A stretch of 32,875 nt of DNA, taken from IMG/VR virus record IMGVR_UViG_2859827302_000004. One strand, given 5' to 3'. Shown piece by piece: positions 1-29,600 of this stretch. The notes beneath the pieces are model-generated. The model did not search any database. It was given only the letters and a program-made list of their open reading frames with translations, and was not told where the DNA came from. This stretch comes from a virus (Duplodnaviria > Heunggongvirae > Uroviricota > Caudoviricetes). A program made the position numbers and the translations under genes. Every line of letters begins with the position of its first letter. Positions within the stretch are counted from its first letter, which is position 1.

Positions 1-141
1 TTACTGCTTACACTGTAAGAACGCCGCAAACTCCGCTCCCCAGAAGCTCATCCGTATTTCGCACAGCGAACCGTGCAGCATCCAGATGATGAGGATTGCC
101 GTCACGCAGAACGTGATGGCCGTAAGCGATTTTTGCGACAT
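1..141 (-). CDS. Hok/Gef-family type I toxin-like small membrane protein (46 aa; absent from the supplied ORF track)
   Basis: Minus-strand ATG (139-141) to TAA (1-3) translates to MSQKSLTAITFCVTAILIIWMLHGSLCEIRMSFWGAEFAAFLQCKQ: polar N-terminus, single hydrophobic helix, then SLCEIR and AAF motifs as in Hok/Gef toxins (recalled from memory). Confidence 0.55.
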   Translation of the reverse strand: MSQKSLTAITFCVTAILIIWMLHGSLCEIRMSFWGAEFAAFLQCKQ

Positions 142-331
142 AGCGCTTGCTCCTTTTTCGGGGAGGCGCTAACCTATCACTTGCTTAGGGTAGACGGTTA
201 GGGCCTCGGTTAAACAAAAATGTTTTCCGGGGCCTTTCCACATCTGGCCTTCAGGTATTCCCTCCGACCATCAGCCGAAAGGCACCCGCGCGTAATCTAT
301 CGCTTTTTTGTTACTCCGGCAATTCTGCTCG
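142..331 (-). promoter_or_regulatory. Putative 5' leader of the hok-like mRNA (where mok/sok-type antisense control would lie)
   Basis: Position only, by analogy with hok/sok loci; no element identified by eye. Confidence 0.2.
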
Positions 332-492
332 TTAATTCTGAGGTAAGGGCAAACTCATCTGATTGTTTCTTCTGTGTGAAGTTGGCAGTTCATGCCACGG
401 GTAGACTGGCCCCCTGAATCTCCAGACAACCAGTATCACTTAAATAAGTGATAGTCTTAATACTAGTTTTTAGACTAGTCATTGGAGTACAG

Positions 493-858
493 ATGATTGA
501 TGTCTTAGGGCCGGAGAAACGCAGACGGCGTACCACACAGGAAAAGATCGCAATTGTTCAGCAGAGCTTTGAACCGGGGATGACGGTCTCCCTCGTTGCC
601 CGGCAACATGGTGTAGCAGCCAGCCAGTTATTTCTCTGGCGTAAGCAATACCAGGAAGGAAGTCTTACTGCTGTGGCCGCCGGAGAACAGGTTGTTCCTG
701 CCTCTGAACTTGCTGCCGCCATGAAGCAGATTAAAGAACTCCAGCGCCTGCTCGGCAAGAAAACGATGGAAAATGAACTCCTCAAAGAAGCCGTTGAATA
801 TGGACGGGCAAAAAAGTGGATAGCGCACGCGCCCTTATTGCCCGGGGATGGGGAGTAA
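493..858 (+). CDS. insC: IS2 InsC (orfA, HTH)
   Basis: [56 protein letters not shown]... recognised as IS2 InsC; ATG at 493 lies inside track ORF 448-858. Confidence 0.9.
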
Positions 859-1721
859 GCTTAGTCAGCCGTTGTCTCCGGGTGTCGCGTGCGCAGTTGC
901 ACGTCATTCTCAGACGAACCGATGACTGGATGGATGGCCGCCGCAGTCGTCACACTGATGATACGGATGTGCTTCTCCGTATACACCATGTTATCGGAGA
1001 GCTGCCCACGTATGGTTATCGTCGGGTATGGGCGCTGCTTCGCAGACAGGCAGAACTTGATGGTATGCCTGCGATCAATGCCAAACGTGTTTACCGGATC
1101 ATGCGCCAGAATGCGCTGTTGCTTGAGCGAAAACCTGCTGTACCACCATCGAAACGGGCACATACAGGCAGAGTGGCCGTGAAAGAAAGCAATCAGCGAT
1201 GGTGCTCTGACGGGTTCGAGTTCTGCTGTGATAACGGAGAGAGACTGCGTGTCACGTTCGCGCTGGACTGCTGTGAGCGTGAGGCACTGCACTGGGCGGT
1301 GACTACCGGCGGCTTCAACAGTGAAACAGTACAGGACGTCATGCTGGGAGCGGTGGAACGCCGCTTCGGCAACGATCTTCCGTCGTCTCCAGTGGAGTGG
1401 CTGACGGATAATGGTTCATGCTACCGGGCTAATGAAACACGCCAGTTCGCCCGGATGTTGGGACTTGAACCGAAGAACACGGCGGTGCGGAGTCCGGAGA
1501 GTAACGGAATAGCAGAGAGCTTCGTGAAAACGATAAAGCGTGACTACATCAGTATCATGCCCAAACCAGACGGGTTAACGGCAGCAAAGAACCTTGCAGA
1601 GGCGTTCGAGCATTATAACGAATGGCATCCGCATAGTGCGCTGGGTTATCGCTCGCCACGGGAATATCTGCGGCAGCGGGCTTGTAATGGGTTAAGTGAT
1701 AACAGATGTCTGGAAATATAG
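816..1721 (+). CDS. insD: IS2 InsD reading frame (DDE transposase; made as InsCD by frameshift)
   Basis: 301-aa ORF overlapping insC, recognised as IS2 InsD. Confidence 0.9.
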
Positions 1722-1732
1722 GGGCAAATCCA

Positions 1733-1928
1733 ACGGGATGCCCTCTGATGAGTGAATGGGGGAGGCGTGCTTTGAAGTGAATTTGTGGAAGGCTTCCAGT
1801 GTTGAGAAACATACGCCGCATTCTAGATTGTTACACTGATAATACTTTTGTCTCACGGTGTTTGAATCATTTTCCGGACGACTGGTGCGGATACGGGCAG
1901 ATGCGCCACAAAGCGGACAACGGAACAT
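1733..1928 (-). pseudogene. ogr: Ogr/Delta-family zinc-finger late-gene activator, 3' end interrupted by IS2
   Basis: MFRCPLCGASARIRTSRPENDSNTVRQKYYQCNNLECGVCF has the C-x2-C...C-x4-C pattern of P2 Ogr; first 65 codons native, then the ORF runs into IS2; native frame resumes beyond the ACGGG repeat and stops at 332-334. Confidence 0.7.
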
Positions 1929-2840: not shown

Positions 2841-3944
2841 TTATTCTGATGTCACTCTTTGCGAGTGAGCTATTTTTAAATCAGCGTTTCCTTCAAATAC
2901 TATATTCAACTCATAGTTAAGAGTTAGCTTGAATTTATCTGAGTCACTTTTGATATTCTCTGAAGTGACATTTACTAACTTATTATTATCATATTCTCTA
3001 ATAATTAATTTAGTGAAGTAGTTATCCTTTACCACAAGAGAAAATGGTTGATTAACAAATGGTAAGAAGTAAACCTTACGGGTACCGGATTCAGTAGTTA
3101 TGTTCATAGAGCCATCATCATTTTTTCTCATTAGTTCTCTGAGGTTGGGATTATCGAAAAGCATACGATTATATTGCTGAAAGATCTCTTTACTCATCAC
3201 AAGAACCAGTTTGCCAGCCAAGTCAGCAGATGATTTTATGTGATCAATCAACATATTGAAATCTTCTATTACGGTATGTTGCGAACAGCCAGTGCTAAAT
3301 AAATTTGAAAGTATTATTCTCTGGATGTCCTTGAGAATTAAGTCTGCTTGAATATCACCTTCATTGATATAAGGGATGGATTCTATTCCTTCGGCATACG
3401 GTTCTTTATCTATCTTAATAGATATCTTATGTTTTGTGAAACAATCGCTAGCCTGCTTAAAATCAATAGATTTGAAAAGTGAAAGAGGGAGCGTTTTCTT
3501 GATGCGTTTACGAAGATGTTCTGATGTTTTACGTGCAGTGCTATCTAGTCGATGTACATCTATGGCAGCATCCTGAAGTCTCATATCAAGATCTTTCTTT
3601 AGCATGTTAATATGCTCTTGAAGCAACTTTCTTAAGTTTTCTTTTTTTGTTTGGAGATCGTCCAATGTTAAAGTCAGCTTGATTTTAGTGTATTCGATGG
3701 AGTTACAAATTTTTGATAATACTCCAATGAATCGTTGCTTCTCACGATATGTTATATAGTTGTTTTCTATTGCTTCTTTTATTTCTTTTGATACGCTATC
3801 GTTCTTGTTAGAAAAAATTAATAATAGCTGAATCCATGATTGTTCCATATCAATAAATCCACAGTCAAAAACATTACTGTAAACTCTGCCCATCACCATG
3901 TCTGTTTTATCATAGTCACGTAAACGCCTTGCTAAACTATTCAT
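2841..3944 (-). CDS. Hypothetical protein, 367 aa, low-GC, apparently intact; distal gene of the cargo cassette
   Basis: Uninterrupted ORF; ATG directly abuts the upstream stop (TAGATG); GGAG about 13 nt upstream; no Walker A or other motif recognisable by eye. Confidence 0.75.
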   Translation of the reverse strand: MNSLARRLRDYDKTDMVMGRVYSNVFDCGFIDMEQSWIQLLLIFSNKNDSVSKEIKEAIENNYITYREKQRFIGVLSKICNSIEYTKIKLTLTLDDLQTKKENLRKLLQEHINMLKKDLDMRLQDAAIDVHRLDSTARKTSEHLRKRIKKTLPLSLFKSIDFKQASDCFTKHKISIKIDKEPYAEGIESIPYINEGDIQADLILKDIQRIILSNLFSTGCSQHTVIEDFNMLIDHIKSSADLAGKLVLVMSKEIFQQYNRMLFDNPNLRELMRKNDDGSMNITTESGTRKVYFLPFVNQPFSLVVKDNYFTKLIIREYDNNKLVNVTSENIKSDSDKFKLTLNYELNIVFEGNADLKIAHSQRVTSE

Positions 3945-4946
3945 CTACCCATTGTGCTCCATATTTTCAGACCATGTCCACAGGCAGATTCTAATTAATA
4001 TCTTGATTAGTTGGCTTGCATTATCAATTTCTTCAGTGGGAGTTTCATATCCACCGGTTTGGTCAATAAGTTTACCCTCTAAAATAAGTTTAATGTAATG
4101 TGTCATTAGTTTGTCAGAAGTATTGATTCTTGATGTCAGATAAAGACATGTGCATATACGCATGTCAGTCAACGCATTTATGATGGCAATATTGAACCAC
4201 TCTCTGTCTGAATTGAAGTTTAGTTTTTTGGATATGAAAAAAACCGGGTTAAAAAGCTGGCCTTTGTAACTGTATTTTTCTACCGAATGGCTGTCAATAT
4301 TCATTGAGTGCTGCCATCGGTTAATAAGATCGACGGCTGTATCAATAGTAGAAGGATCGCGAGTCTGTGTTGCATCAATAATCATCGATGGAAGTTCTTG
4401 TAGTTGCGTTTTGCAAAATAATTCAAATAAATCTGAATTCTCTGTATTGCAGAAACGAAAGTTTATGCTTTCTTGATATTGCTCCCAAACAGTGGTATAG
4501 GTTCTTAATATACGATTATAACGTGAACGAAGCGAGGCATTTAAGAGTGATTGGTTGTTTCGGAACCATTCTGTTAATATTGACCATTGTGAACGAGTAA
4601 TTCCCATATAGATACAAAGTTCATTGCTGATAAGATGTTTTCTATTATTGATAATACGCACTCCGCTCCAAAGACATAATTCAAAAAATCTTTCAGAAAG
4701 ATTAATTTTATCCATGGAATTATTTGATATTTTATAAACTTCATCTGAAAACTCATATTGAAAACTCCGTTCAAATAATTCTGTAGTGATCAGTAAGAAG
4801 TTATTGTTGGTATTATCATCTTGAAAAAAATACAAATCGCAGAGATTATTAAAGTTATTAATTAATGCAGAGATAGCATTGTCAAAACTAATGAGATCAG
4901 AATCCCGCAGATACATATACGTATCTGCTGTTATAGCCTGCATTGT
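3945..4946 (-). CDS. Hypothetical protein ORF (332 native codons); probably the C-terminal third of an IS-split ~670-aa gene
   Basis: Track ORF 3945-4979 begins inside IS600 (first 11 codons MVVSAIASTPH are IS-encoded); native frame is continuous with the ORF on the other side of IS600. Confidence 0.65.
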   Translation of the reverse strand, partial: TMQAITADTYMYLRDSDLISFDNAISALINNFNNLCDLYFFQDDNTNNNFLLITTELFERSFQYEFSDEVYKISNNSMDKINLSERFFELCLWSGVRIINNRKHLISNELCIYMGITRSQWSILTEWFRNNQSLLNASLRSRYNRILRTYTTVWEQYQESINFRFCNTENSDLFELFCKTQLQELPSMIIDATQTRDPSTIDTAVDLINRWQHSMNIDSHSVEKYSYKGQLFNPVFFISKKLNFNSDREWFNIAIINALTDMRICTCLYLTSRINTSDKLMTHYIKLILEGKLIDQTGGYETPTEEIDNASQLIKILIRICLWTWSENMEHNG

Positions 4947-4990
4947 GTGAGGTGTACTGGCAATAGCGGACACTACCATTTGTTCTTTTT

Positions 4991-5809
4991 TTAAGCAGCC
5001 ATCTGATGATATTTTTCCCTGAAGGCTGCCGGGGAGATATTCCCCAGACGAGAGTGACGACGCTGACGATTGTAGAAAATCTCAATGTATTCCCGTATTA
5101 CTGAGATGGCTTCATCCCGGTTATTAAAACGATAGTGGCTCAGGCTCTCATTTTTCAGCGTTCCCCAGAAGCTTTCCATCGGAGCGTTGTCGTAACAGTT
5201 ACCTTTACGCGACATTGATGTTTTCAGACCAGACTGCTCCTGTATGACCCGGTAATCGTATGCGCAGTACTGTGAACCTCGATCAGAGTGGTGGATTAGC
5301 CCGGCAGGTGGGCGCTGGCTCCTGAGCGCCATAAACAGGGCTTTACCTGTCAGCTCTTTTGTCATGCGCTCTCCCATGGCGTAGCCGACAATTTCGCACG
5401 TATAAACATCTTTGATGCCAGCGAGGTACAACCATCCCTCCTGAGTGGCAACATACGTCAGGTCCGCCACCCAGACCTGATTTGGTGCTGTAGGAGCGAA
5501 CGTCTGGTTCAGCAGATTTGGCGCAACTGGCAGATTGTGGTTCGGGTTCGTAGTCGCTCTGAACTTGCGTTTCTGCTTACAGCGTAGCCTTAGCTCCTTA
5601 CGAAGACGTGCCAGTCGGTCACGACCAACGATGATGCCATTCTCTGCCAGCTCCGTCTGGAGCCGCCGGGTTCCATATGTTTCGCGAGTGCGGATATGTG
5701 CCACCTTAATCTCCAGTTTTAGCCGCTCATCACTTTGTTTTCTGTCTGAGGGTTCATGCTGTACCCAGTTGTAATAACCGCTCCTGGATACACCAAATAC
5801 CTGACACAT
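4991..5809 (-). CDS. IS600 orfB (DDE transposase domain)
   Basis: 272-aa ORF in IS3-family orfA/orfB arrangement. Confidence 0.9.
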   Translation of the reverse strand: MCQVFGVSRSGYYNWVQHEPSDRKQSDERLKLEIKVAHIRTRETYGTRRLQTELAENGIIVGRDRLARLRKELRLRCKQKRKFRATTNPNHNLPVAPNLLNQTFAPTAPNQVWVADLTYVATQEGWLYLAGIKDVYTCEIVGYAMGERMTKELTGKALFMALRSQRPPAGLIHHSDRGSQYCAYDYRVIQEQSGLKTSMSRKGNCYDNAPMESFWGTLKNESLSHYRFNNRDEAISVIREYIEIFYNRQRRHSRLGNISPAAFREKYHQMAA

Positions 5810-7005: not shown

Positions 7006-7281
7006 GTGGCTTCCATTTCCATCAGATGTCCTTCCTGCTCCGCTACTGAAGGCGTGGTGCGTAACGGCAAAAGCACTGCCGGACATCAGCGCTATCTCTG
7101 CTCTCATTGCCGTAAAACATGGCAACTACAGTTCACTTACACCGCCTCTCAGCCCGGTACGCACCAGAAAATCATTGATATGGCCATGAATGGCGTCGGA
7201 TGTCGCGCCAGTGCACGCATTATGGGCGTTGGCCTCAACACGGTTTTCCGTCACTTAAAAAACTCAGGCCGCAGTCGGTAA
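7006..7281 (+). CDS. insA: IS1 InsA
   Basis: Same protein as the copy at 2032-2307 apart from one residue. Confidence 0.9.
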
Positions 7282-7703
7282 CCTCGCGCATACAACCGGG
7301 CAGTGATGTGATTGTCTGCGCTGAAATGGACGAACAGTGGGGCTACGTCGGTGCTAAATCACGTCAGCGCTGGCTGTTTTACGCGTATGACAGGATACGG
7401 AGGACGGTTGTGGCGCACGTCTTCGGTGAACGCACTCTGGCCACACTGGAGCGTCTTCTGAGCCTGCTGTCGGCCTTTGAGGTCGTGGTATGGATGACGG
7501 ATGGCTGGCCGCTGTATGAATCACGCCTGAAGGGAAAGCTGCACGTTATCAGCAAGCGTTACACTCAGCGCATTGAGCGACATAATCTGAATCTGAGACA
7601 ACATCTGGCAAGGCTGGGACGGAAGTCACTGTCGTTCTCAAAATCGGTGGAGCTGCATGACAAGGTCATCGGGCATTATCTGAACATAAAACACTATCAG
7701 TAA
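7200..7703 (+). CDS. insB: IS1 InsB reading frame
   Basis: Same protein as the copy at 2226-2729 apart from one residue. Confidence 0.85.
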
Positions 7704-9032: not shown

Positions 9033-10296
9033 TGGAGCACCTCAAAAACACCATCATACACTAAATCAGTAAGTTGGCAGCATCACCAAGCCGCTGTTAT
9101 CAATGGTGTGCTCGGCTTTTGCAATAATCCAGTCCTGATAATCAATCTCGCTTTTAAAGCCTGTCACTGTGCCATGCATTTCGGGATAGAGTTCTGCACG
9201 ACCACGCGCCAGCGTGATGGAGAATGATGCGGCTCCGCGTTGTAGCTGCTGCCACTTTGCCGCCGCTGCGCGTCTTGCTGCCTGCTCGTTCTGATAAGTC
9301 TTGCGTAACACAAACACGTTGCCTTCCACACCTTCCATATAGTCGCCTTCCCGACTGCTGCTTTTCTCCTTTTTGGGTTTTGGCGGTTTGCGGCGTTTCA
9401 CGCTGACTTTTTTCTTTTTCCCGTAATTAAGATCAAGCCAGTAGGCGCGTACCCCCGTATACGCCTCGCGGTCAGCAATGCGGAACTGATGGCGATCGCC
9501 GCTGCTGCGTGTAATGGCGAACGAGGGCAACGGCTGCCCCTGTGCGTTCACGCCACCACCTGGCATGATGAATAACAGATTGCCGCTTTTTACCGTGGCG
9601 ATTGCTCCCAGCATTTCCGCCATGCGCGTAAGAAAGGACATGTCGCTTTCTTCGGTCTGGTCGGCGTGGTCGATTTCGATATCCATCAGCATTTCGCTGA
9701 TTTGCGGTTTCAGACCGTACCGATGAGCGATGGCGGATACCACACGCTCAACGGTCACATCATGCCAGGACACCTCACGTTTAACGTTAAATTCATCCCG
9801 AAAATCTGCGCTTCTGGCTGAAACAGTCAGCCTGTCCGGCGGTCCTTCGTGAGCGATTTCATCAACAATGTAAGTGCCTTTTTCTGTCAGCGGTTCCCCT
9901 TTCCAGCCAATGAGAACCGTCAGACGCGCGCCCCGTGGCGGTAGCTGCAACTGACCATCCGCATCATCCAGCGTGATGGTGAGCTGGTCCGCCTCAAATC
10001 CCCGGTTGTCGGTCAGTTACAGGCTCATCAGGCGCTCCGCCACGCCTGACAGCGTTTTACCCTCCGAGAGAATATCAAAATCCGGCATTTTCACGGGGGC
10101 CGTGCCCTGACTGAGCAATTGCATGGTGGTGTCGGTCATCTGCTCCCTCCCTGTGCGGCATGGTCGCATGTGCGTGCGGAGGGGGGGACTGCTTTTTGTT
10201 GTCGCCGTGGCGGGAGAACGGCGCAGGGGTGAGATTACGCGCGTGGTGGGTGATGATTGTTGCTGAATCATTTAACGGATACAAGGGGCTGAAGCT

Positions 10297-11481
10297 ATGA
10301 GTGAAACTCGTTTTCATGGTGCCCGTGTTACGGAGAATACCGACCTGGTAACAGCGATTAACGATGTTGATTCCAGCGTTATCGGTATCGTGGCAACGGC
10401 GGATGATGCGGACGCGAAGCTGTTCCCGCTGAACAAGCCCACACTGCTGACCCGCGTCAATGACGTGCTGGGAAAATGCGGGACAACGGGGACGCTTTAT
10501 CGTGCGCTTAAGGCCATCGCAGACCAGGTGAGCACAAAGGTGATCGTCGTTCGCGTGGCTGAACACAAAGAAGAAGACGGAAAAACGCAGGATCAACTGG
10601 TTATAGGTGGTTCTGAGGATGACGGCAGCTATATGGGGATGTATGCGCTGCTTGTTGCAGAGCAGGATGAAAGCATCGGATACCGTCCGCGTATTCTGGC
10701 CGCGCCGGAGCTGGACACGGAGGCGGTAACAAAATCCCTGTGCGTGATTGCAGATAAACTGCGCGCGTTTGTGTATGCCTCATGTCATGGCTGTAACACG
10801 ATGGCCGAGGCAATTACCTACCGCCAGAAATTCAACGAACGTGAGGTGATGCTCTTATGGCCGGACTTCATCGCCTACAACCCGAAAAATGGCAAAAACG
10901 AAACGTTCCCCGCGCCTGCCTATGCGTGCGGCCTTCGTGCGTACATTGACCATGAACAGGGATGGAACAAATCGCTGTCCAACGTTCCGGTTAAAAATGT
11001 GCTGGGGATGTCGAGGCATGTGTTCTGGTCGTTGCAGGCCGAAGACAGCGATGCCAACAGCCTCAACAACAAAGAAATCACGACCATTATTCGTCGCAAC
11101 GGGGTCCGCTTCTGGGGTAACCGCACACCGGAAACGAACGCCTACATCTTTGAGGTGTATACCCGAACCGCACAGGTGCTGGCTGATTCAATTGCGGAAG
11201 CGCAGTTTGAAACCATCGACAGTCCACTGACGCCTGCGAATGTGAAGGATGTTATCAGTGCCATCAGGGCAAAACTGGATTCACTGGTGACTGCCGGGAA
11301 ACTGATTGGCGCGGAGTGCTGGTATGACGTGGTGGATAACAGCACCACGGATTTACGTCAGGGACGTGTGCGTATTCGCTACAAATATACGCCCGTTCCG
11401 CCACTGGAAGACATGGAGCTTTACCAGACGTTTACTGATGAATACTTTGAACCCGCATTTGCGGTGCTGGGAGGTGCCTGA
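10297..11481 (+). CDS. FI: Contractile tail sheath protein, P2 FI family
   Basis: 394-aa ORF with [50 protein letters not shown] and YTPVPPLE motifs shared with P2 FI as recalled. Confidence 0.85.
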
Positions 11482-18701: not shown

Positions 18702-20303
18702 TCACCCGGAGAAGGTAAATCCCTCAAGAGGCAGCAACTCTGCCAGTCGCTCCTCCGGCCACTCCGGCAGACGCATCAGGACGTCTGTCAACCAGGCATG
18801 CGGCTCCAGACCGTTGCGTTTCGCGGTTTCCAGCAAGCTCATTATTTGCGCGGCGCGTTCTCCCGCCATCTGCGAACCGGCGAACAGCCACGATTTTCTG
18901 CCCAGAACCACGTTTTTGATGGCCCGTTCACACACATTATTATCCAGCGGCACCGCACCATCTTCCAGGAAGCGGCTCAGTTCCACGCGATGAGACAGCG
19001 CATAGGCAATGGCTTTGTGTAATGCCTTTCCCGGAGAACATTGCGGTTCCTGCTCTTCAAGCCATGACCACAGTTCTTCCAGTATCGGACGGGCATAACG
19101 CTGTCGCCACTGGCGGATTTTTTCCACGGGGCGGCTACTGATCTTCTTCTCAAGACGGTACAACCCCGCGATTTTCTTCACGGCTATGGCAGCCCGTGGA
19201 TCTTTACTGATTTTATACAGGTCGGCGAAGCCCCTGCGGGCATGGGCCCAGCATCCGGCCAGCGTGATCTCCGGCACTTTGTTTGCCAGAGTCCGGTATG
19301 CTTTATGTCCGTCGACAACCAGCGTCCCGCCCCAGCCCTGAAGCCAGTTTTCAGGATACTCATGGCTACGTCCGGTCCGGCAGTCGAAGCACACAACTGA
19401 CGGTCCCGTCCTTTCTCCACTGACGTATGCCCACTGATAACCGGAGCAGGATTTACCGCCTTTCTTCGTGTTCAGGATCTTCAGGGTAGTCTCATCTGCA
19501 TGCACCACCGGACGGTTTATCAACTCGCGATGGAGTAACGCCGCCAGGGGAGATAATGCGGCACCCGCCGCGCCAACCATGTCAGCCATCGAACTGACGG
19601 GCAGCCCGACATCTGAACGGGCAAAGACCTGTTGCTGGCGATACAGAGGCAGGTGGTCACCGTATTTATTGATGATCACCTGTGCGATGACTGATGGCTC
19701 AACGGCACTTTTCGGGAGGATATGTGCCGGCATTTCACCGCTGAACACCTTCTGGCAACAGGGACAACTGTATTGCGGACGGACATAACGGTTCACCACA
19801 AAGTGAGCGGGAATATACTCCAGCTTTTCACTCACCGCATCGCGGATATAGTGCAGCGGCTCGTCACATTCAGGGCAATGGTCAGTGTCCGGCTGGATAA
19901 TTTTTTCCACCCGTGGAAGATGAACCGGTAAGGGTTTGGGTATCGGGCGTGAACGGGACGCTTTTTCATCTTCTTCAGGGGATTGCGGGAGCAGTTTATC
20001 CAGATGTGCGGTAAGCGCGGCGATATCGGCATCAACATCCTCTTCGAATAGGGAGCGTTGCATACCAGCCAGCGTTTCACATTTTTTTCCGAAGCGCTGT
20101 TGACGAACCAGTTTCAGCATTTCTTCCAGAAGCTGGATGCGCCGGCTTTTCTCCAGTAATTCCCGCTCTTTTTCGGCATTCTCCGACATGACTTCTTGTA
20201 CCATGGCAAGTGCCATAGCACGCAGTTTTTCGATGTCATTCGTGGTGTTGAGAGCGGAGATATCCATACAGGGGAGTATACCACTCCAGATACGGATATT
20301 CAT
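18702..20303 (-). CDS. IS66-family TnpC, apparently intact (533 aa)
   Basis: Contains HADET, CWAHARR and zinc-finger-like CPECDEPL...CPCC motifs. Confidence 0.85.
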   Translation of the reverse strand: MNIRIWSGILPCMDISALNTTNDIEKLRAMALAMVQEVMSENAEKERELLEKSRRIQLLEEMLKLVRQQRFGKKCETLAGMQRSLFEEDVDADIAALTAHLDKLLPQSPEEDEKASRSRPIPKPLPVHLPRVEKIIQPDTDHCPECDEPLHYIRDAVSEKLEYIPAHFVVNRYVRPQYSCPCCQKVFSGEMPAHILPKSAVEPSVIAQVIINKYGDHLPLYRQQQVFARSDVGLPVSSMADMVGAAGAALSPLAALLHRELINRPVVHADETTLKILNTKKGGKSCSGYQWAYVSGERTGPSVVCFDCRTGRSHEYPENWLQGWGGTLVVDGHKAYRTLANKVPEITLAGCWAHARRGFADLYKISKDPRAAIAVKKIAGLYRLEKKISSRPVEKIRQWRQRYARPILEELWSWLEEQEPQCSPGKALHKAIAYALSHRVELSRFLEDGAVPLDNNVCERAIKNVVLGRKSWLFAGSQMAGERAAQIMSLLETAKRNGLEPHAWLTDVLMRLPEWPEERLAELLPLEGFTFSG

Positions 20304-26626: not shown

Positions 26627-29600
26627 ATGGGTAAAGGCAGCAGTAAGGGGCATACCCCGCGCGAAGCGAAGGACAACCTGAAATCCACGCAGTTGCTGAG
26701 TGTGATTGATGCCATCAGCGAAGGGCCGGTTGACGGTCCGGTGGATGGATTAAAAAGCGTGCTGCTGAACGGTACGCCGGTCCTGGACAGCGAGGGGAAG
26801 ACAAACTTTTCCGGTGTTACGGTGGTGTTCCGCGCCGGCGAGCAGGAGCAGACACCGCCGGAGGGGTTTGAATCTTCCGGCTCAGAGACTGTGCTGGGTA
26901 CGGAAGTGAAATACGACACGCCGATCACCCGGACCATCACGTCGGCAAACATTGATCGTCTGCGCCTGACCTTCGGTGTGCAGGCACTGGTGGAAAACAC
27001 CTCAAAGGGGGACCGGAATCCGTCGGAAGTCCGCCTGCTGGTTCAGATACAGCGTAACGGTGGCTGGGTGACGGAAAAAGACATCACCATTAAGGGCAAA
27101 ACCACTTCGCAGTATCTGGCCTCGGTGGTGATGGGTAACCTGCCGCCGCGCCCGTTTAATATCCGGATGCGCAGGATGACACCGGACAGCACCACAGACC
27201 AGCTGCAGAACAAAACGCTCTGGTCGTCGTACACCGAAATCATCGATGTGAAACAGTGCTACCCGAACACGGCGCTGGTCGGCGTGCAGGTGGATTCAGA
27301 GCAGTTCGGTAACCAGCAGGTGAGTCGCAATTATCATCTTCGCGGGCGCATTCTGCAGGTGCCGTCGAACTATAACCCGCAGACGCGGCAATACAGCGGT
27401 ATCTGGGACGGAACGCTTAAGCCAGCATACAGCAACAACATGGCCTGGTGTCTGTGGGACATGCTCACTCATCCGCGCTACGGCATGGGGAAACGTCTTG
27501 GTGCGGCAGATGTGGACAAATGGGCGCTGTATGTCATCGGCCAGTACTGCGACCAGTCAGTGCCGGACGGATTTGGCGGCACGGAGCCGCGCATCACCTG
27601 TAACGCTTACCTGACCACACAGCGTAAGGCGTGGGATGTTCTCAGTGATTTCTGCTCGGCGATGCGCTGTATGCCGGTATGGAACGGGCAGACGCTGACG
27701 TTCGTGCAGGACCGACCGTCGGATAAAGTGTGGACCTATAACCGCAGTAATGTGGTGATGCCGGATGATGGCGCGCCGTTCCGCTACAGCTTCAGCGCCC
27801 TGAAGGACCGCCATAATGTCGTTGAGGTGAACTGGATTGATCCGGACAACGGTCATGAGACGGCGACAGAGCTTGTGGAGGACACGCAGGCCATTCTCCG
27901 TTACGGTCGTAACGCCACGAAGATGGATGCCTTTGGCTGTACCAGCCGGGGACAGGCGCACCGCGCCGGGCTGTGGCTGATTAAAACGGAACTGCTGGAA
28001 ACGCAGACCGTGGACTTCAGCGTCGGCGCAGAAGGGCTTCGCCATGTACCGGGTGATGTCATTGAAATCTGCGATGATGATTATGCCGGTATCAGCACCG
28101 GTGGTCGCGTACTGGCGGTGAACAGCCAGACCCGGACGCTGACGCTCGACCGTGAAATCACGCTGCCGTCCTCCGGTACCACGCTGATAAGCCTGGTTGA
28201 CGGAAATGGCAATCCGGTCAGCGTGGAGGTTCAGTCCGTCACCGACGGCGTGAAGGTGAAAGTGAGCCGGGTTCCTGACGGCGTTGCAGAATACAGCGTG
28301 TGGGGGCTGAAGCTGCCGACGCTGCGCCAGCGCCTGTTCCGCTGCGTGAGTATCCGTGAGAACGACGACGGCACGTATGCCATCACCGCCGTGCAGCATG
28401 TGCCGGAAAAAGAGGCCATCGTGGATAACGGGGCACACTTTGACGGTGACCGGCGCGGCACGGTGAATGGTGTCACGCCGCCAGCGGTGCAGCATCTGAC
28501 CGCCGAAGTCACCGCAGACAGCGGGGAATATCAGGTGCTGGCGCGATGGGACACGCCGAAGGTGGTGAAGGGTGTGAGCTTCCTGCTTCGCCTGACCGTG
28601 GCAGCGGACGACGGCAGTGAGCGGCTGGTCAGCACAGCCAGGACGACGGAAACCACATACCGCTTCAGGCAGCTGGCGCTGGGGAATTACAGTCTGACAG
28701 TCCGGGCGGTAAATGCCCGGGGGCAGCAGGGCGATCCGGCGTCGGTATCGTTCCGGATTGCGGCACCGGCAGCGCCTGTCACTATTGAACTGATACCGGG
28801 GTATTTTCAGATAACGGCGGTCCCGAAACTGGCTATATATGACCCGACGGTGCAGTTTGAGTTCTGGTTTTCGGAAAAGCGGATTGCGGATATCAGGCAG
28901 GTTGAAACCAGCGCCCGCTATCTTGGCACGGCGCTGTACTGGATAGCCGCCAGTATCAATATCAGGCGGGCCATGATTATTATTTTTACGTTCGCAGTGT
29001 GAACACCGTTGGCAAATCGGCATTTGTGGAGGCCGTCGGTCGGGCGAGCGATGATGCGGAAGGTTATCTGAGTTTTTATAAAGGGTTGATCAATAAAACG
29101 CATCTCGGCAAGGAGTTGTGGACGCAGATTGATAACGGTCAGCTTGCGCCGGACCTGACTGAAATCAGGACGTCCATTACGAATGTCAGCAATGAAATCA
29201 CGCAAACCGTCAATAAAAAACTGGAAAATCAGAGTGCTGCAATCCAGCAGATACAGAAAGTTCAGGTTGATACAAATAATAACCTGAACAGCATGTGGGC
29301 TGTGAAGCTGCAACAGATGAAGGACGGACGCCTTTATATTGCGGGTATCGGTGCCGGTATTGAGAATACGCCAGCAGGAATGCAGAGTCAGGTGCTGCTG
29401 GCGGCAGACAGGATTGCGATGATTAATCCTGCGAATGGCAACACAAAGCCGATGTTTGTTGGTCAGGGCGATCAGATATTCATGAACGACGTGTTCCTGA
29501 AACGCCTGACGGCTCCGACCATTACCAGCGGCGGTAATCCTCCGGCATTTTCCCTGACACCTGGCGGACGGCTGACGGCGAAAAATGCCGATATCAGCGG

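Follow-up and report, generated by a model that had tools for sequence, protein, structure and literature searches.

The best-described relatives of the locus considered here are the hok/sok modules of plasmids, prophages, and bacterial chromosomes. In the hok mRNA of plasmid R1, the mok Shine–Dalgarno sequence lies at +104-107, the mok start codon at +116-118, and the hok start codon at +174-176, and the synthesis of Hok requires that mok be translated at least as far as the hok Shine–Dalgarno sequence (PMC9841398). A prophage-borne module is known from the Stx2 prophage Sp5, and a role in phage release or lysis has been demonstrated only for this system, hokW-sokW (PMC8621323). In Escherichia coli K-12, fbi of the chromosomal hokC/gef locus is disrupted by IS186, which lies on the downstream side of the hok frame (PMC3562002). 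Lastly, a survey of Hok homologs, available as a preprint that is not peer reviewed, tested overexpression alone, with the coding sequence placed under an arabinose promoter, and reported that 42 of 45 homologs were toxic, naming the three that were not; it states that mok, Sok, and the mRNA were not analyzed, and no identification of mok was attempted (bioRxiv 10.1101/2025.08.07.668861).

The window analyzed here is a stretch of 32,875 nucleotides (IMG/VR virus record IMGVR_UViG_2859827302_000004). At its left edge lies a prophage hok/sok cassette that is already known and occurs very commonly, and its 3' end is cut by the window boundary. Taken as a whole, the evidence is best explained by a functional-type prophage cassette to which a nearby IS2 is an unrelated later insertion, a reading to which we assign a probability of roughly 85%. 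Like the R1 system, the locus combines a Hok/Gef protein with tac, ucb, GAGGC/GCCUC (mok Shine–Dalgarno/dcb), and target hairpin elements in like order, a long-range pairing between the 5' and 3' ends of the mRNA, predicted from loci identical over window 1-340, and an antisense promoter, here predicted, just upstream of the hok start. It differs from R1 in encoding a Hok of 46 rather than 52 aa, in the position of the hok AUG (+147 against +174), in the absence of the 70-codon mok, whose R1 start codon position (+116-118) is occupied here by AAG, and in residing in a prophage rather than on a plasmid. The gene, its family, its prophage location, and a toxicity test of this Hok are already on record, and the missing canonical mok is the sole part of the locus with some novelty.

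The Hok Protein and Its Distribution

The hok coding sequence occupies positions 1..141 on the minus strand, running from an ATG start to a TAA stop that forms the first three bases of the window, and its product is a 46-aa peptide (MSQKSLTAITFCVTAILIIWMLHGSLCEIRMSFWGAEFAAFLQCKQ). Residues 7-44 align with positions 5-42 of the 42 in the Pfam HOK_GEF profile (PF01848) at 29.9 bits, where the gathering score is 22, and the PHROG 251 profile covers the whole peptide with E=1.3e-22. The best NCBIfam model is HokA (NF007290), and the motifs W-M, SLCE, and AAFL-C-K are common to this peptide and K-12 HokA; nevertheless, a score of 34 bits against an equivalog cut-off of 89 rules out that the peptide is HokA itself, and K-12 HokA belongs to a different 60% identity cluster (93, against 72 here). 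There is a hydrophobic helix at approximately residues 5-22. The residues that the preprint survey found conserved in >80% of Hok peptides, namely M1, C16, T18, L30-C31-E32, and E41 in its logo numbering, correspond in order and spacing to M1, C12, T14, L26-C27-E28, and E37 of the present protein. Among 79 unique cassettes, the length of 46 codons is constant in nearly all, despite amino-acid divergence of up to ~50%, and the variable columns number 27/18/35 by codon position, the third position being the most variable. On these sequence grounds, the open reading frame (ORF) is a Hok/Gef family toxin gene, as the initial annotation had proposed for this minus-strand frame of 46 codons at the window edge. 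Its family membership predicts that the peptide would insert in the inner membrane and collapse membrane integrity.

Given that the frame has just 46 codons and that short ORFs are common (the first 2.5 kb contain 46 that encode at least 20 aa), it could be argued that an open frame has arisen by chance at the window edge. The significant matches in three independent profile libraries (Pfam, NCBIfam, and PHROG) refute this argument, and the annotation of an identical protein in RefSeq, a structured leader that is probably homologous to hok leaders, and a toxicity test that has already been published all speak against it. The exact 46-aa peptide, identical at 46/46 residues, is 72_1621 in Table S2 of the survey, where it represents a high-abundance cluster (Hok cluster 72) and was cloned as LRP137; its coding DNA matches that of the window except for a single synonymous change at Leu22 (TTG against CTG), and it is not among the three homologs named as non-toxic (bioRxiv 10.1101/2025.08.07.668861). 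The alignment to Hok/Gef models that the initial annotation had suggested gave significant similarity, and overexpression of the identical peptide lies outside the three non-toxic cases of 45.

The same annotation had described the gene as unannotated and, by implication, new. The first description holds for the ORF track from which it was made, but not elsewhere. The NCBI pipeline calls the gene product a "Hok/Gef family protein," and under this name RefSeq protein WP_000078916.1, with an identical 46-aa sequence, is found beside ogr and at several chromosomal sites. In the records of phages Chuche, P88, Xuanwuvirus P884B11, and 500465-2, the same ORF is labeled "MokW-like host killing protein," a label that derives from a broad PHROG family. 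Although hokW-sokW and the present module are both prophage-borne, and phage pipelines attach the "MokW-like" label to the present gene, HokW is a different Hok of 51 aa, and the primer used to clone it encodes MKQQKAM (PMC8621323), which is also the N-terminus of HokD. The identification of the 46-aa protein as HokW is rejected on account of this length and HokD-like N-terminus.

The implied novelty is not borne out by the identical RefSeq entry, by the tested peptide 72_1621, or by the distribution of the cassette. A megablast search with window positions 1-401 matched 1545 of 5426 complete E. coli genomes, 1214 of them over at least 80% of the query, and among the matches listed every record carries a "Hok/Gef family protein" annotation at the matching site, usually with an "ogr/Delta-like zinc finger family protein" next to it. 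At two E. coli loci (L001 and L002), a P2-like prophage adjoining ihfA has the cassette as its final gene, and further copies adjoin serS or flk. It also occurs in intact phage genomes, for example, those of Chuche, P88, and Xuanwuvirus P884B11. The gene order in phage Chuche is tail gene D, the ogr-like gene, hok, com and a methyltransferase gene, and integrase; therefore, the hok cassette is accessory cargo near the attachment site. Cassettes with 74-84% identity are found in Stx2a and lambdoid prophages near lom/tail-fibre genes, and also in an island beside a type-B L31 gene; the 84% identical cassette of Stx2a phages is a separate 46-aa gene and is not hokW. Beyond E. coli, a near-identical copy is present in a Salmonella enterica chromosome, and a scan of genome contigs with a 17-base pattern recovered real cassettes in only two rows, both from S. 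enterica (L056 and L130), the remainder being mostly chance matches in GC-rich genomes.

Two further observations concern individual copies. Tandem cassettes of this cluster, two complete ones each, are present in two IMG/VR contigs (L239 5545-6424 and L151 4318-5464) with spacings of ~455 and 720 bp; the tandem copies are diverged and encode different Hok variants. In an extrachromosomal record of E. coli E110019 (L007 1630-1719), a homologous hok is annotated as a 29-aa product and the neighboring ogr and methyltransferase genes are both marked as frameshifted, so that this short hok may be either a decayed copy or the result of a low-quality assembly.

Two Predicted Folds of the hok mRNA and a Putative Sok RNA

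In an alignment across unrelated genomic contexts, the common sequence starts at the -35 hexamer of a predicted hok promoter (at approximately window position 322) and ends just past fbi. The window begins at the hok stop codon, and fbi and the terminator fall beyond its left edge; we therefore used L001, an uninterrupted locus of E. coli VG38-53E1 that is identical to the window over positions 1-340, for the 3' part. There, the cassette continues with the hairpin GACGGGGGAGCAAUCCCCCGUC, with AAGGCACCC (fbi), which is complementary to the 5' GGGUGCCUU, and with a terminator. The hok promoter is predicted at 294..322 on the minus strand, where a -35 element TTGCCG (322-317) and a -10 element TAGATT (299-294), separated by a 17-nt spacer, were read from the sequence and give 8 of 12 consensus matches. 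The 5' leader of the hok mRNA would span 146 nt (142..287, minus strand), its 5' end at G287 being assigned by homology. The Rfam model RF01794 (sok) matches positions 128..287(-), on the hok-sense strand, over model positions 1-157 with 46 bits and E=1.3e-8, below the gathering score of 59. Judging from this likeness, the leader is probably homologous to hok leaders. The same model also matches L001 at 4128-4287. At the gathering threshold, Rfam returned nothing in the whole window, and thus an annotation that uses Rfam at default thresholds would miss the RNA part of this common cassette.

Folding suggests two alternative forms of this mRNA. The full-length L001 mRNA of 408 nt folds at -174.5 kcal/mol (z -7.0) with the tac element paired with positions 337-352. 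This element comprises mRNA positions +1..+15 (window 287-273, minus strand) and its 5' GGGUGCCUU is invariant in 46 diverged cassettes. The full-length form has extra long-range helices (96-112 with 320-335), and in it a hairpin UAGCGCCUCC...GGAGCAAGCGCUA at 141..171(-), that is, mRNA +117..+147, buries the hok Shine–Dalgarno sequence GGAG (153-150) and extends up to the A of the start codon. When the mRNA is truncated to 320 nt, the 5' end pairs with +47..+59. This ucb-like segment, GUGGAAAGGCCCC, lies at window 229..241(-) and was delimited from an RNAalifold consensus in which it pairs with tac after removal of the 3' end. In the fold of the truncated mRNA, GAGGC (+81-85) also pairs with GCCUC (+121-125), forming the predicted Sok-target hairpin of the processed mRNA at 163..207(-), or +81..+125, and the Shine–Dalgarno hairpin is mostly open. 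On its own, the 60-nt tac/ucb hairpin folds at -33.7 kcal/mol (z -5.2) and the Shine–Dalgarno hairpin (141..171) at -12.8 kcal/mol (z -4.1).

The conservation of these folds was assessed in the 46 cassettes, which are mutually <97% identical. In the full-length structure, 90.2% of cells are paired against 39-44% with the partners slid, an advantage that is inflated because a single aligned sequence served to derive both folds. This choice does not affect the compensatory changes: both sides differ in 28 pairs, of which 6 belong to the long-range helix and 4 to the 3' hairpin. The tac-fbi helix (1-15/337-352), taken from loci identical over window 1-340, is 92.3% paired, and the helices of the Shine–Dalgarno hairpin are 100% and 95.7% paired. 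For the truncated form, the corresponding values are 99.3% for the tac/ucb helix (1-14/47-59), with 1 compensatory pair, and 91.1% for the target hairpin, in which 3 pairs change on both sides. According to these models, two mutually exclusive mRNA folds are retained across 46 diverged copies.

A Sok antisense RNA is predicted by analogy at approximately 182-238 on the plus strand. Its putative promoter (147..175, plus strand) consists of a -35 TTGCTC (147-152) and a -10 TAACCT (170-175) with a 17-nt spacer, hexamers that occupy what we take to be the position of the Sok promoter in R1. The complement of the -10 element (AGGUUA, mRNA +113..118) is invariant in the 46 sequences and that of the -35 element nearly so. 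A sigma-70 consensus scan with a threshold of 9 of 12 found no promoter for either hok or Sok, and both assignments consequently rest on position and conservation. The search of the leader for an antisense promoter, which had been recommended at the outset, thus led to a candidate whose hexamers are conserved in position and match the consensus weakly. The RNA itself (182..238, plus strand) would be ~57 nt long, its ends being approximate as drawn from the fold, with a 14-nt single-stranded 5' tail complementary to the loop of the target hairpin and a terminator-like hairpin at 200-236 (-23.2 kcal/mol, z -2.8). Two variants of this hairpin, differing at several stem positions, can be read by eye in the alignment of homologs.

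Based on the R1 paradigm, we infer that the full-length mRNA (~400 nt) would be locked, with its 5' tac paired with the 3' fbi (outside the window) and the hok Shine–Dalgarno sequence held in the local hairpin. Slow trimming of the 3' end would allow tac to switch to the ucb-like segment; this pairing would leave GAGGC free to pair with GCCUC, and the hok Shine–Dalgarno sequence would open. As long as the cassette is present and transcribed, Sok would prevent the synthesis of Hok, this short and unstable RNA (~182-238, plus strand) pairing with the processed mRNA and directing it to decay. Once Sok is exhausted, Hok would be made and would insert in the inner membrane, leading to cell death or growth arrest. 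A prophage copy could stabilize the prophage, exclude other phages, or help lysis.

A Leader without a Conserved mok Frame

The initial annotation had also suggested that the leader be searched for a mok frame, and here the outcome was negative for the canonical form. No ORF of at least 20 codons overlaps the hok start in any frame of the window, and a search of all three frames, in 13 and then in 79 cassettes, for a start codon that opens a frame across the hok start found none that is conserved. At the position aligned with the R1 mok AUG, the sequence reads AAG, and GAGG is conserved. The sole leader ORF consists of 24 codons in the hok frame (169..243, minus strand); it starts at AUG +45 (window 243) and stops at a UAG (171-169) that lies 27 nt before the hok ATG, at the 5' base of the Shine–Dalgarno hairpin. 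In the 79 unique cassettes, the length of the frame that begins at this AUG ranges between 1 and 78 codons, with all frames represented, and just 11 of these ORFs overlap hok. The variable columns of the ORF are spread over the codon positions as 11/13/13, with no bias. Although AUG +45 is invariant, we reject it as a mok start given this free variation in length and frame and the lack of codon-position bias; its invariance is accounted for by its location within the segment that pairs with tac. As far as the alignments indicate, the canonical mok frame is not conserved in Hok cluster 72, this locus included.

The absence of mok bears on whether the cassette is active at all. The hok ORF could be intact and yet never be translated from its own transcript, as the mok required in R1 is absent and the prophage is decaying and riddled with IS elements, in which case the locus would be an inactive relic. 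Such an interpretation would fit the lack of any ORF of at least 20 codons that overlaps the hok start in another frame, the AAG at the position of the R1 mok AUG, the several transposase genes of the window and its mixture of P2-like and lambdoid tail genes, and the precedent of K-12 hokC/gef, where fbi is disrupted by an IS (PMC3562002). We nevertheless consider it unlikely. The same arrangement without mok is found in intact, plaque-forming phage genomes, and window positions 1-340 are without differences from uninterrupted loci. Moreover, over a range of 74-100% nucleotide identity, the length of the ORF, its conserved residues, and both RNA folds have been kept, the latter with compensatory changes, and this maintenance argues for ongoing selection. 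We therefore favor the hypothesis that the cassette is of the functional type.

Either the coupling step is a different one here, or the natural level of expression is low. One tentative possibility, which we hold to be rather less probable than its converse, is that cluster 72 has lost the mok leader peptide and kept every RNA element of the R1 switch, with GAGGC acting solely as an anti-anti-Shine–Dalgarno sequence in a mok-independent variant of the switch. Under this hypothesis, tac/ucb pairing would let GAGGC capture GCCUC(C) and so directly unmask the hok Shine–Dalgarno sequence, and Sok would block the switch by sequestering GAGGC. Another option is that, in some copies, the short ORF of variable length may be enough, for example, in the present one, where its stop lies at the base of the Shine–Dalgarno hairpin. 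Were the mok-independent hypothesis true, a sizeable fraction of the complete E. coli genomes surveyed would carry such a hok switch. The commonness of a cluster 72 cassette without a recognizable mok also means that a considerable fraction of natural hok loci may lie outside the R1 model, in which translation is coupled to mok.

IS2, the ogr-Like Gene, and the Surrounding Prophage

The IS2 element (IS3 family) spans 1331 bp at 402..1732, with its transposase frames on the plus strand, and is flanked by a 5-bp target duplication, ACGGG, at 397-401 on the left and 1733-1737 on the right. RefSeq annotates matching IS2 copies as "IS3-like element IS2 family transposase." The element splits an ogr-like gene at codon 65. 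The 5' fragment (1733..1928, minus strand) retains 65 native codons with an Ogr/Delta zinc finger (Pfam Ogr_Delta, 52.7 bits) and reads 13 codons into IS2, to position 1692, and the displaced 3' fragment lies at 332..401(-), as identified by comparison with the uninterrupted gene (L001 4332-4592). When IS2 and one of the ACGGG copies are deleted, an ogr-like gene of 86 codons is recovered, and the 640 bp compared with L001 contain 1 mismatch. The initial annotation had recognized a simple insertion of IS2 into the 3' part of this gene, with the ACGGG duplication and about 260 bp upstream of hok, and these points agree with our analysis, in which the distance from the hok ATG (141) to the end of IS2 (402) is 261 bp. 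It had also supposed that the ogr-like gene runs into the hok leader. Instead, the restored gene stops at 334-332, abutting the hok promoter: the stop lies 9 bp upstream of the predicted -35 (322-317) and 45 bp upstream of the predicted mRNA 5' end (287). Further upstream, an IS1 at 1977-2744 lies 48 bp before the ogr-like start, where the similarity to L001 ends; thus, not only the 3' end but also the upstream region of the ogr-like gene is gone.

A functional tie between IS2 and hok, through which the element would silence or activate the toxin gene, had been hinted at by analogy with the IS elements near K-12 hok loci, among which hokA and hokE have the same IS topology as hokC/gef. IS2 does end only 261 bp upstream of the hok ATG, and its insertion would remove any read-through from the ogr promoter into hok, no terminator having been found between the ogr stop and the hok promoter; the removal of this read-through transcription is the one plausible effect of IS2 on hok. 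All the same, we regard a functional link as highly improbable. The element ends 80 bp upstream of the hok -35, beyond the segment common to cassettes in unrelated contexts, and its transposase genes have this hok-proximal end on their upstream side and point away from hok. The K-12 hokC/gef locus resembles the present one as a chromosomal hok locus with an IS nearby, but there the IS is downstream and disrupts fbi, whereas here IS2 is upstream, within ogr, and the sequence of the cassette is unchanged (PMC3562002). Many other IS copies are present in the window. In addition, a search with the ogr/IS2 junction found only four E. coli records that cover at least 80% of the query, and such a small number indicates that the insertion is sporadic. 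In the two best of these, two separate pieces are joined across a gap of ~645 bp; each of the remaining two is a single match of 93% identity, and hence the E. coli records searched yielded no near-identical junction. One IMG/VR contig carries the exact junction, and it likewise ends at the hok stop. The best interpretation of IS2 in ogr is that it is one among the many insertions that a decaying prophage has received, a later event that would have truncated ogr and left the cassette sequence as it was.

The remainder of the window (2841-32875) is mosaic, with transposase genes at 4991-5809, 7200-7703, and 18702-20303, P2-like tail genes that include a gpD-like gene (9066-9950) and a tail sheath gene (10297-11481), and a lambdoid tail-tip J-like gene at 26627-29002. 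PHROG gave no match for two ORFs, of 344 and 367 aa, at 2841-4979. This region looks like a degraded composite prophage, and with the prophage so heavily disrupted by IS elements, the selective context of hok may be gone.

The left boundary of the window recurs in other records. Many IMG/VR provirus contigs (e.g., L139, L148, L174, L192, L199, L201, and L209) have the 17-base pattern at positions 228-244, and thus start at the same base as the window. The trimming of provirus contigs at gene boundaries removes the 3' untranslated region of hok, with fbi and the terminator, and the regulatory half of the cassette is thereby lost from the records. More generally, type I toxin loci become hidden or incomplete when an ORF track applies a length cut or a provirus contig is trimmed to a gene boundary, as in the loss of the 3' regulatory element here.

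The neighborhood of the cassette also varies between prophages. In the P2-like prophage of E. coli VG38-53E1 (L001 4728-7847), a 3.1-kb gene annotated as "MFS transporter" lies between the ogr-like gene and a gpD-like tail gene, and in strain RM9088 the same slot is held by a DUF2971 gene. The slot between the ogr-like and gpD-like genes appears to be a variable cargo site by the hok cassette.
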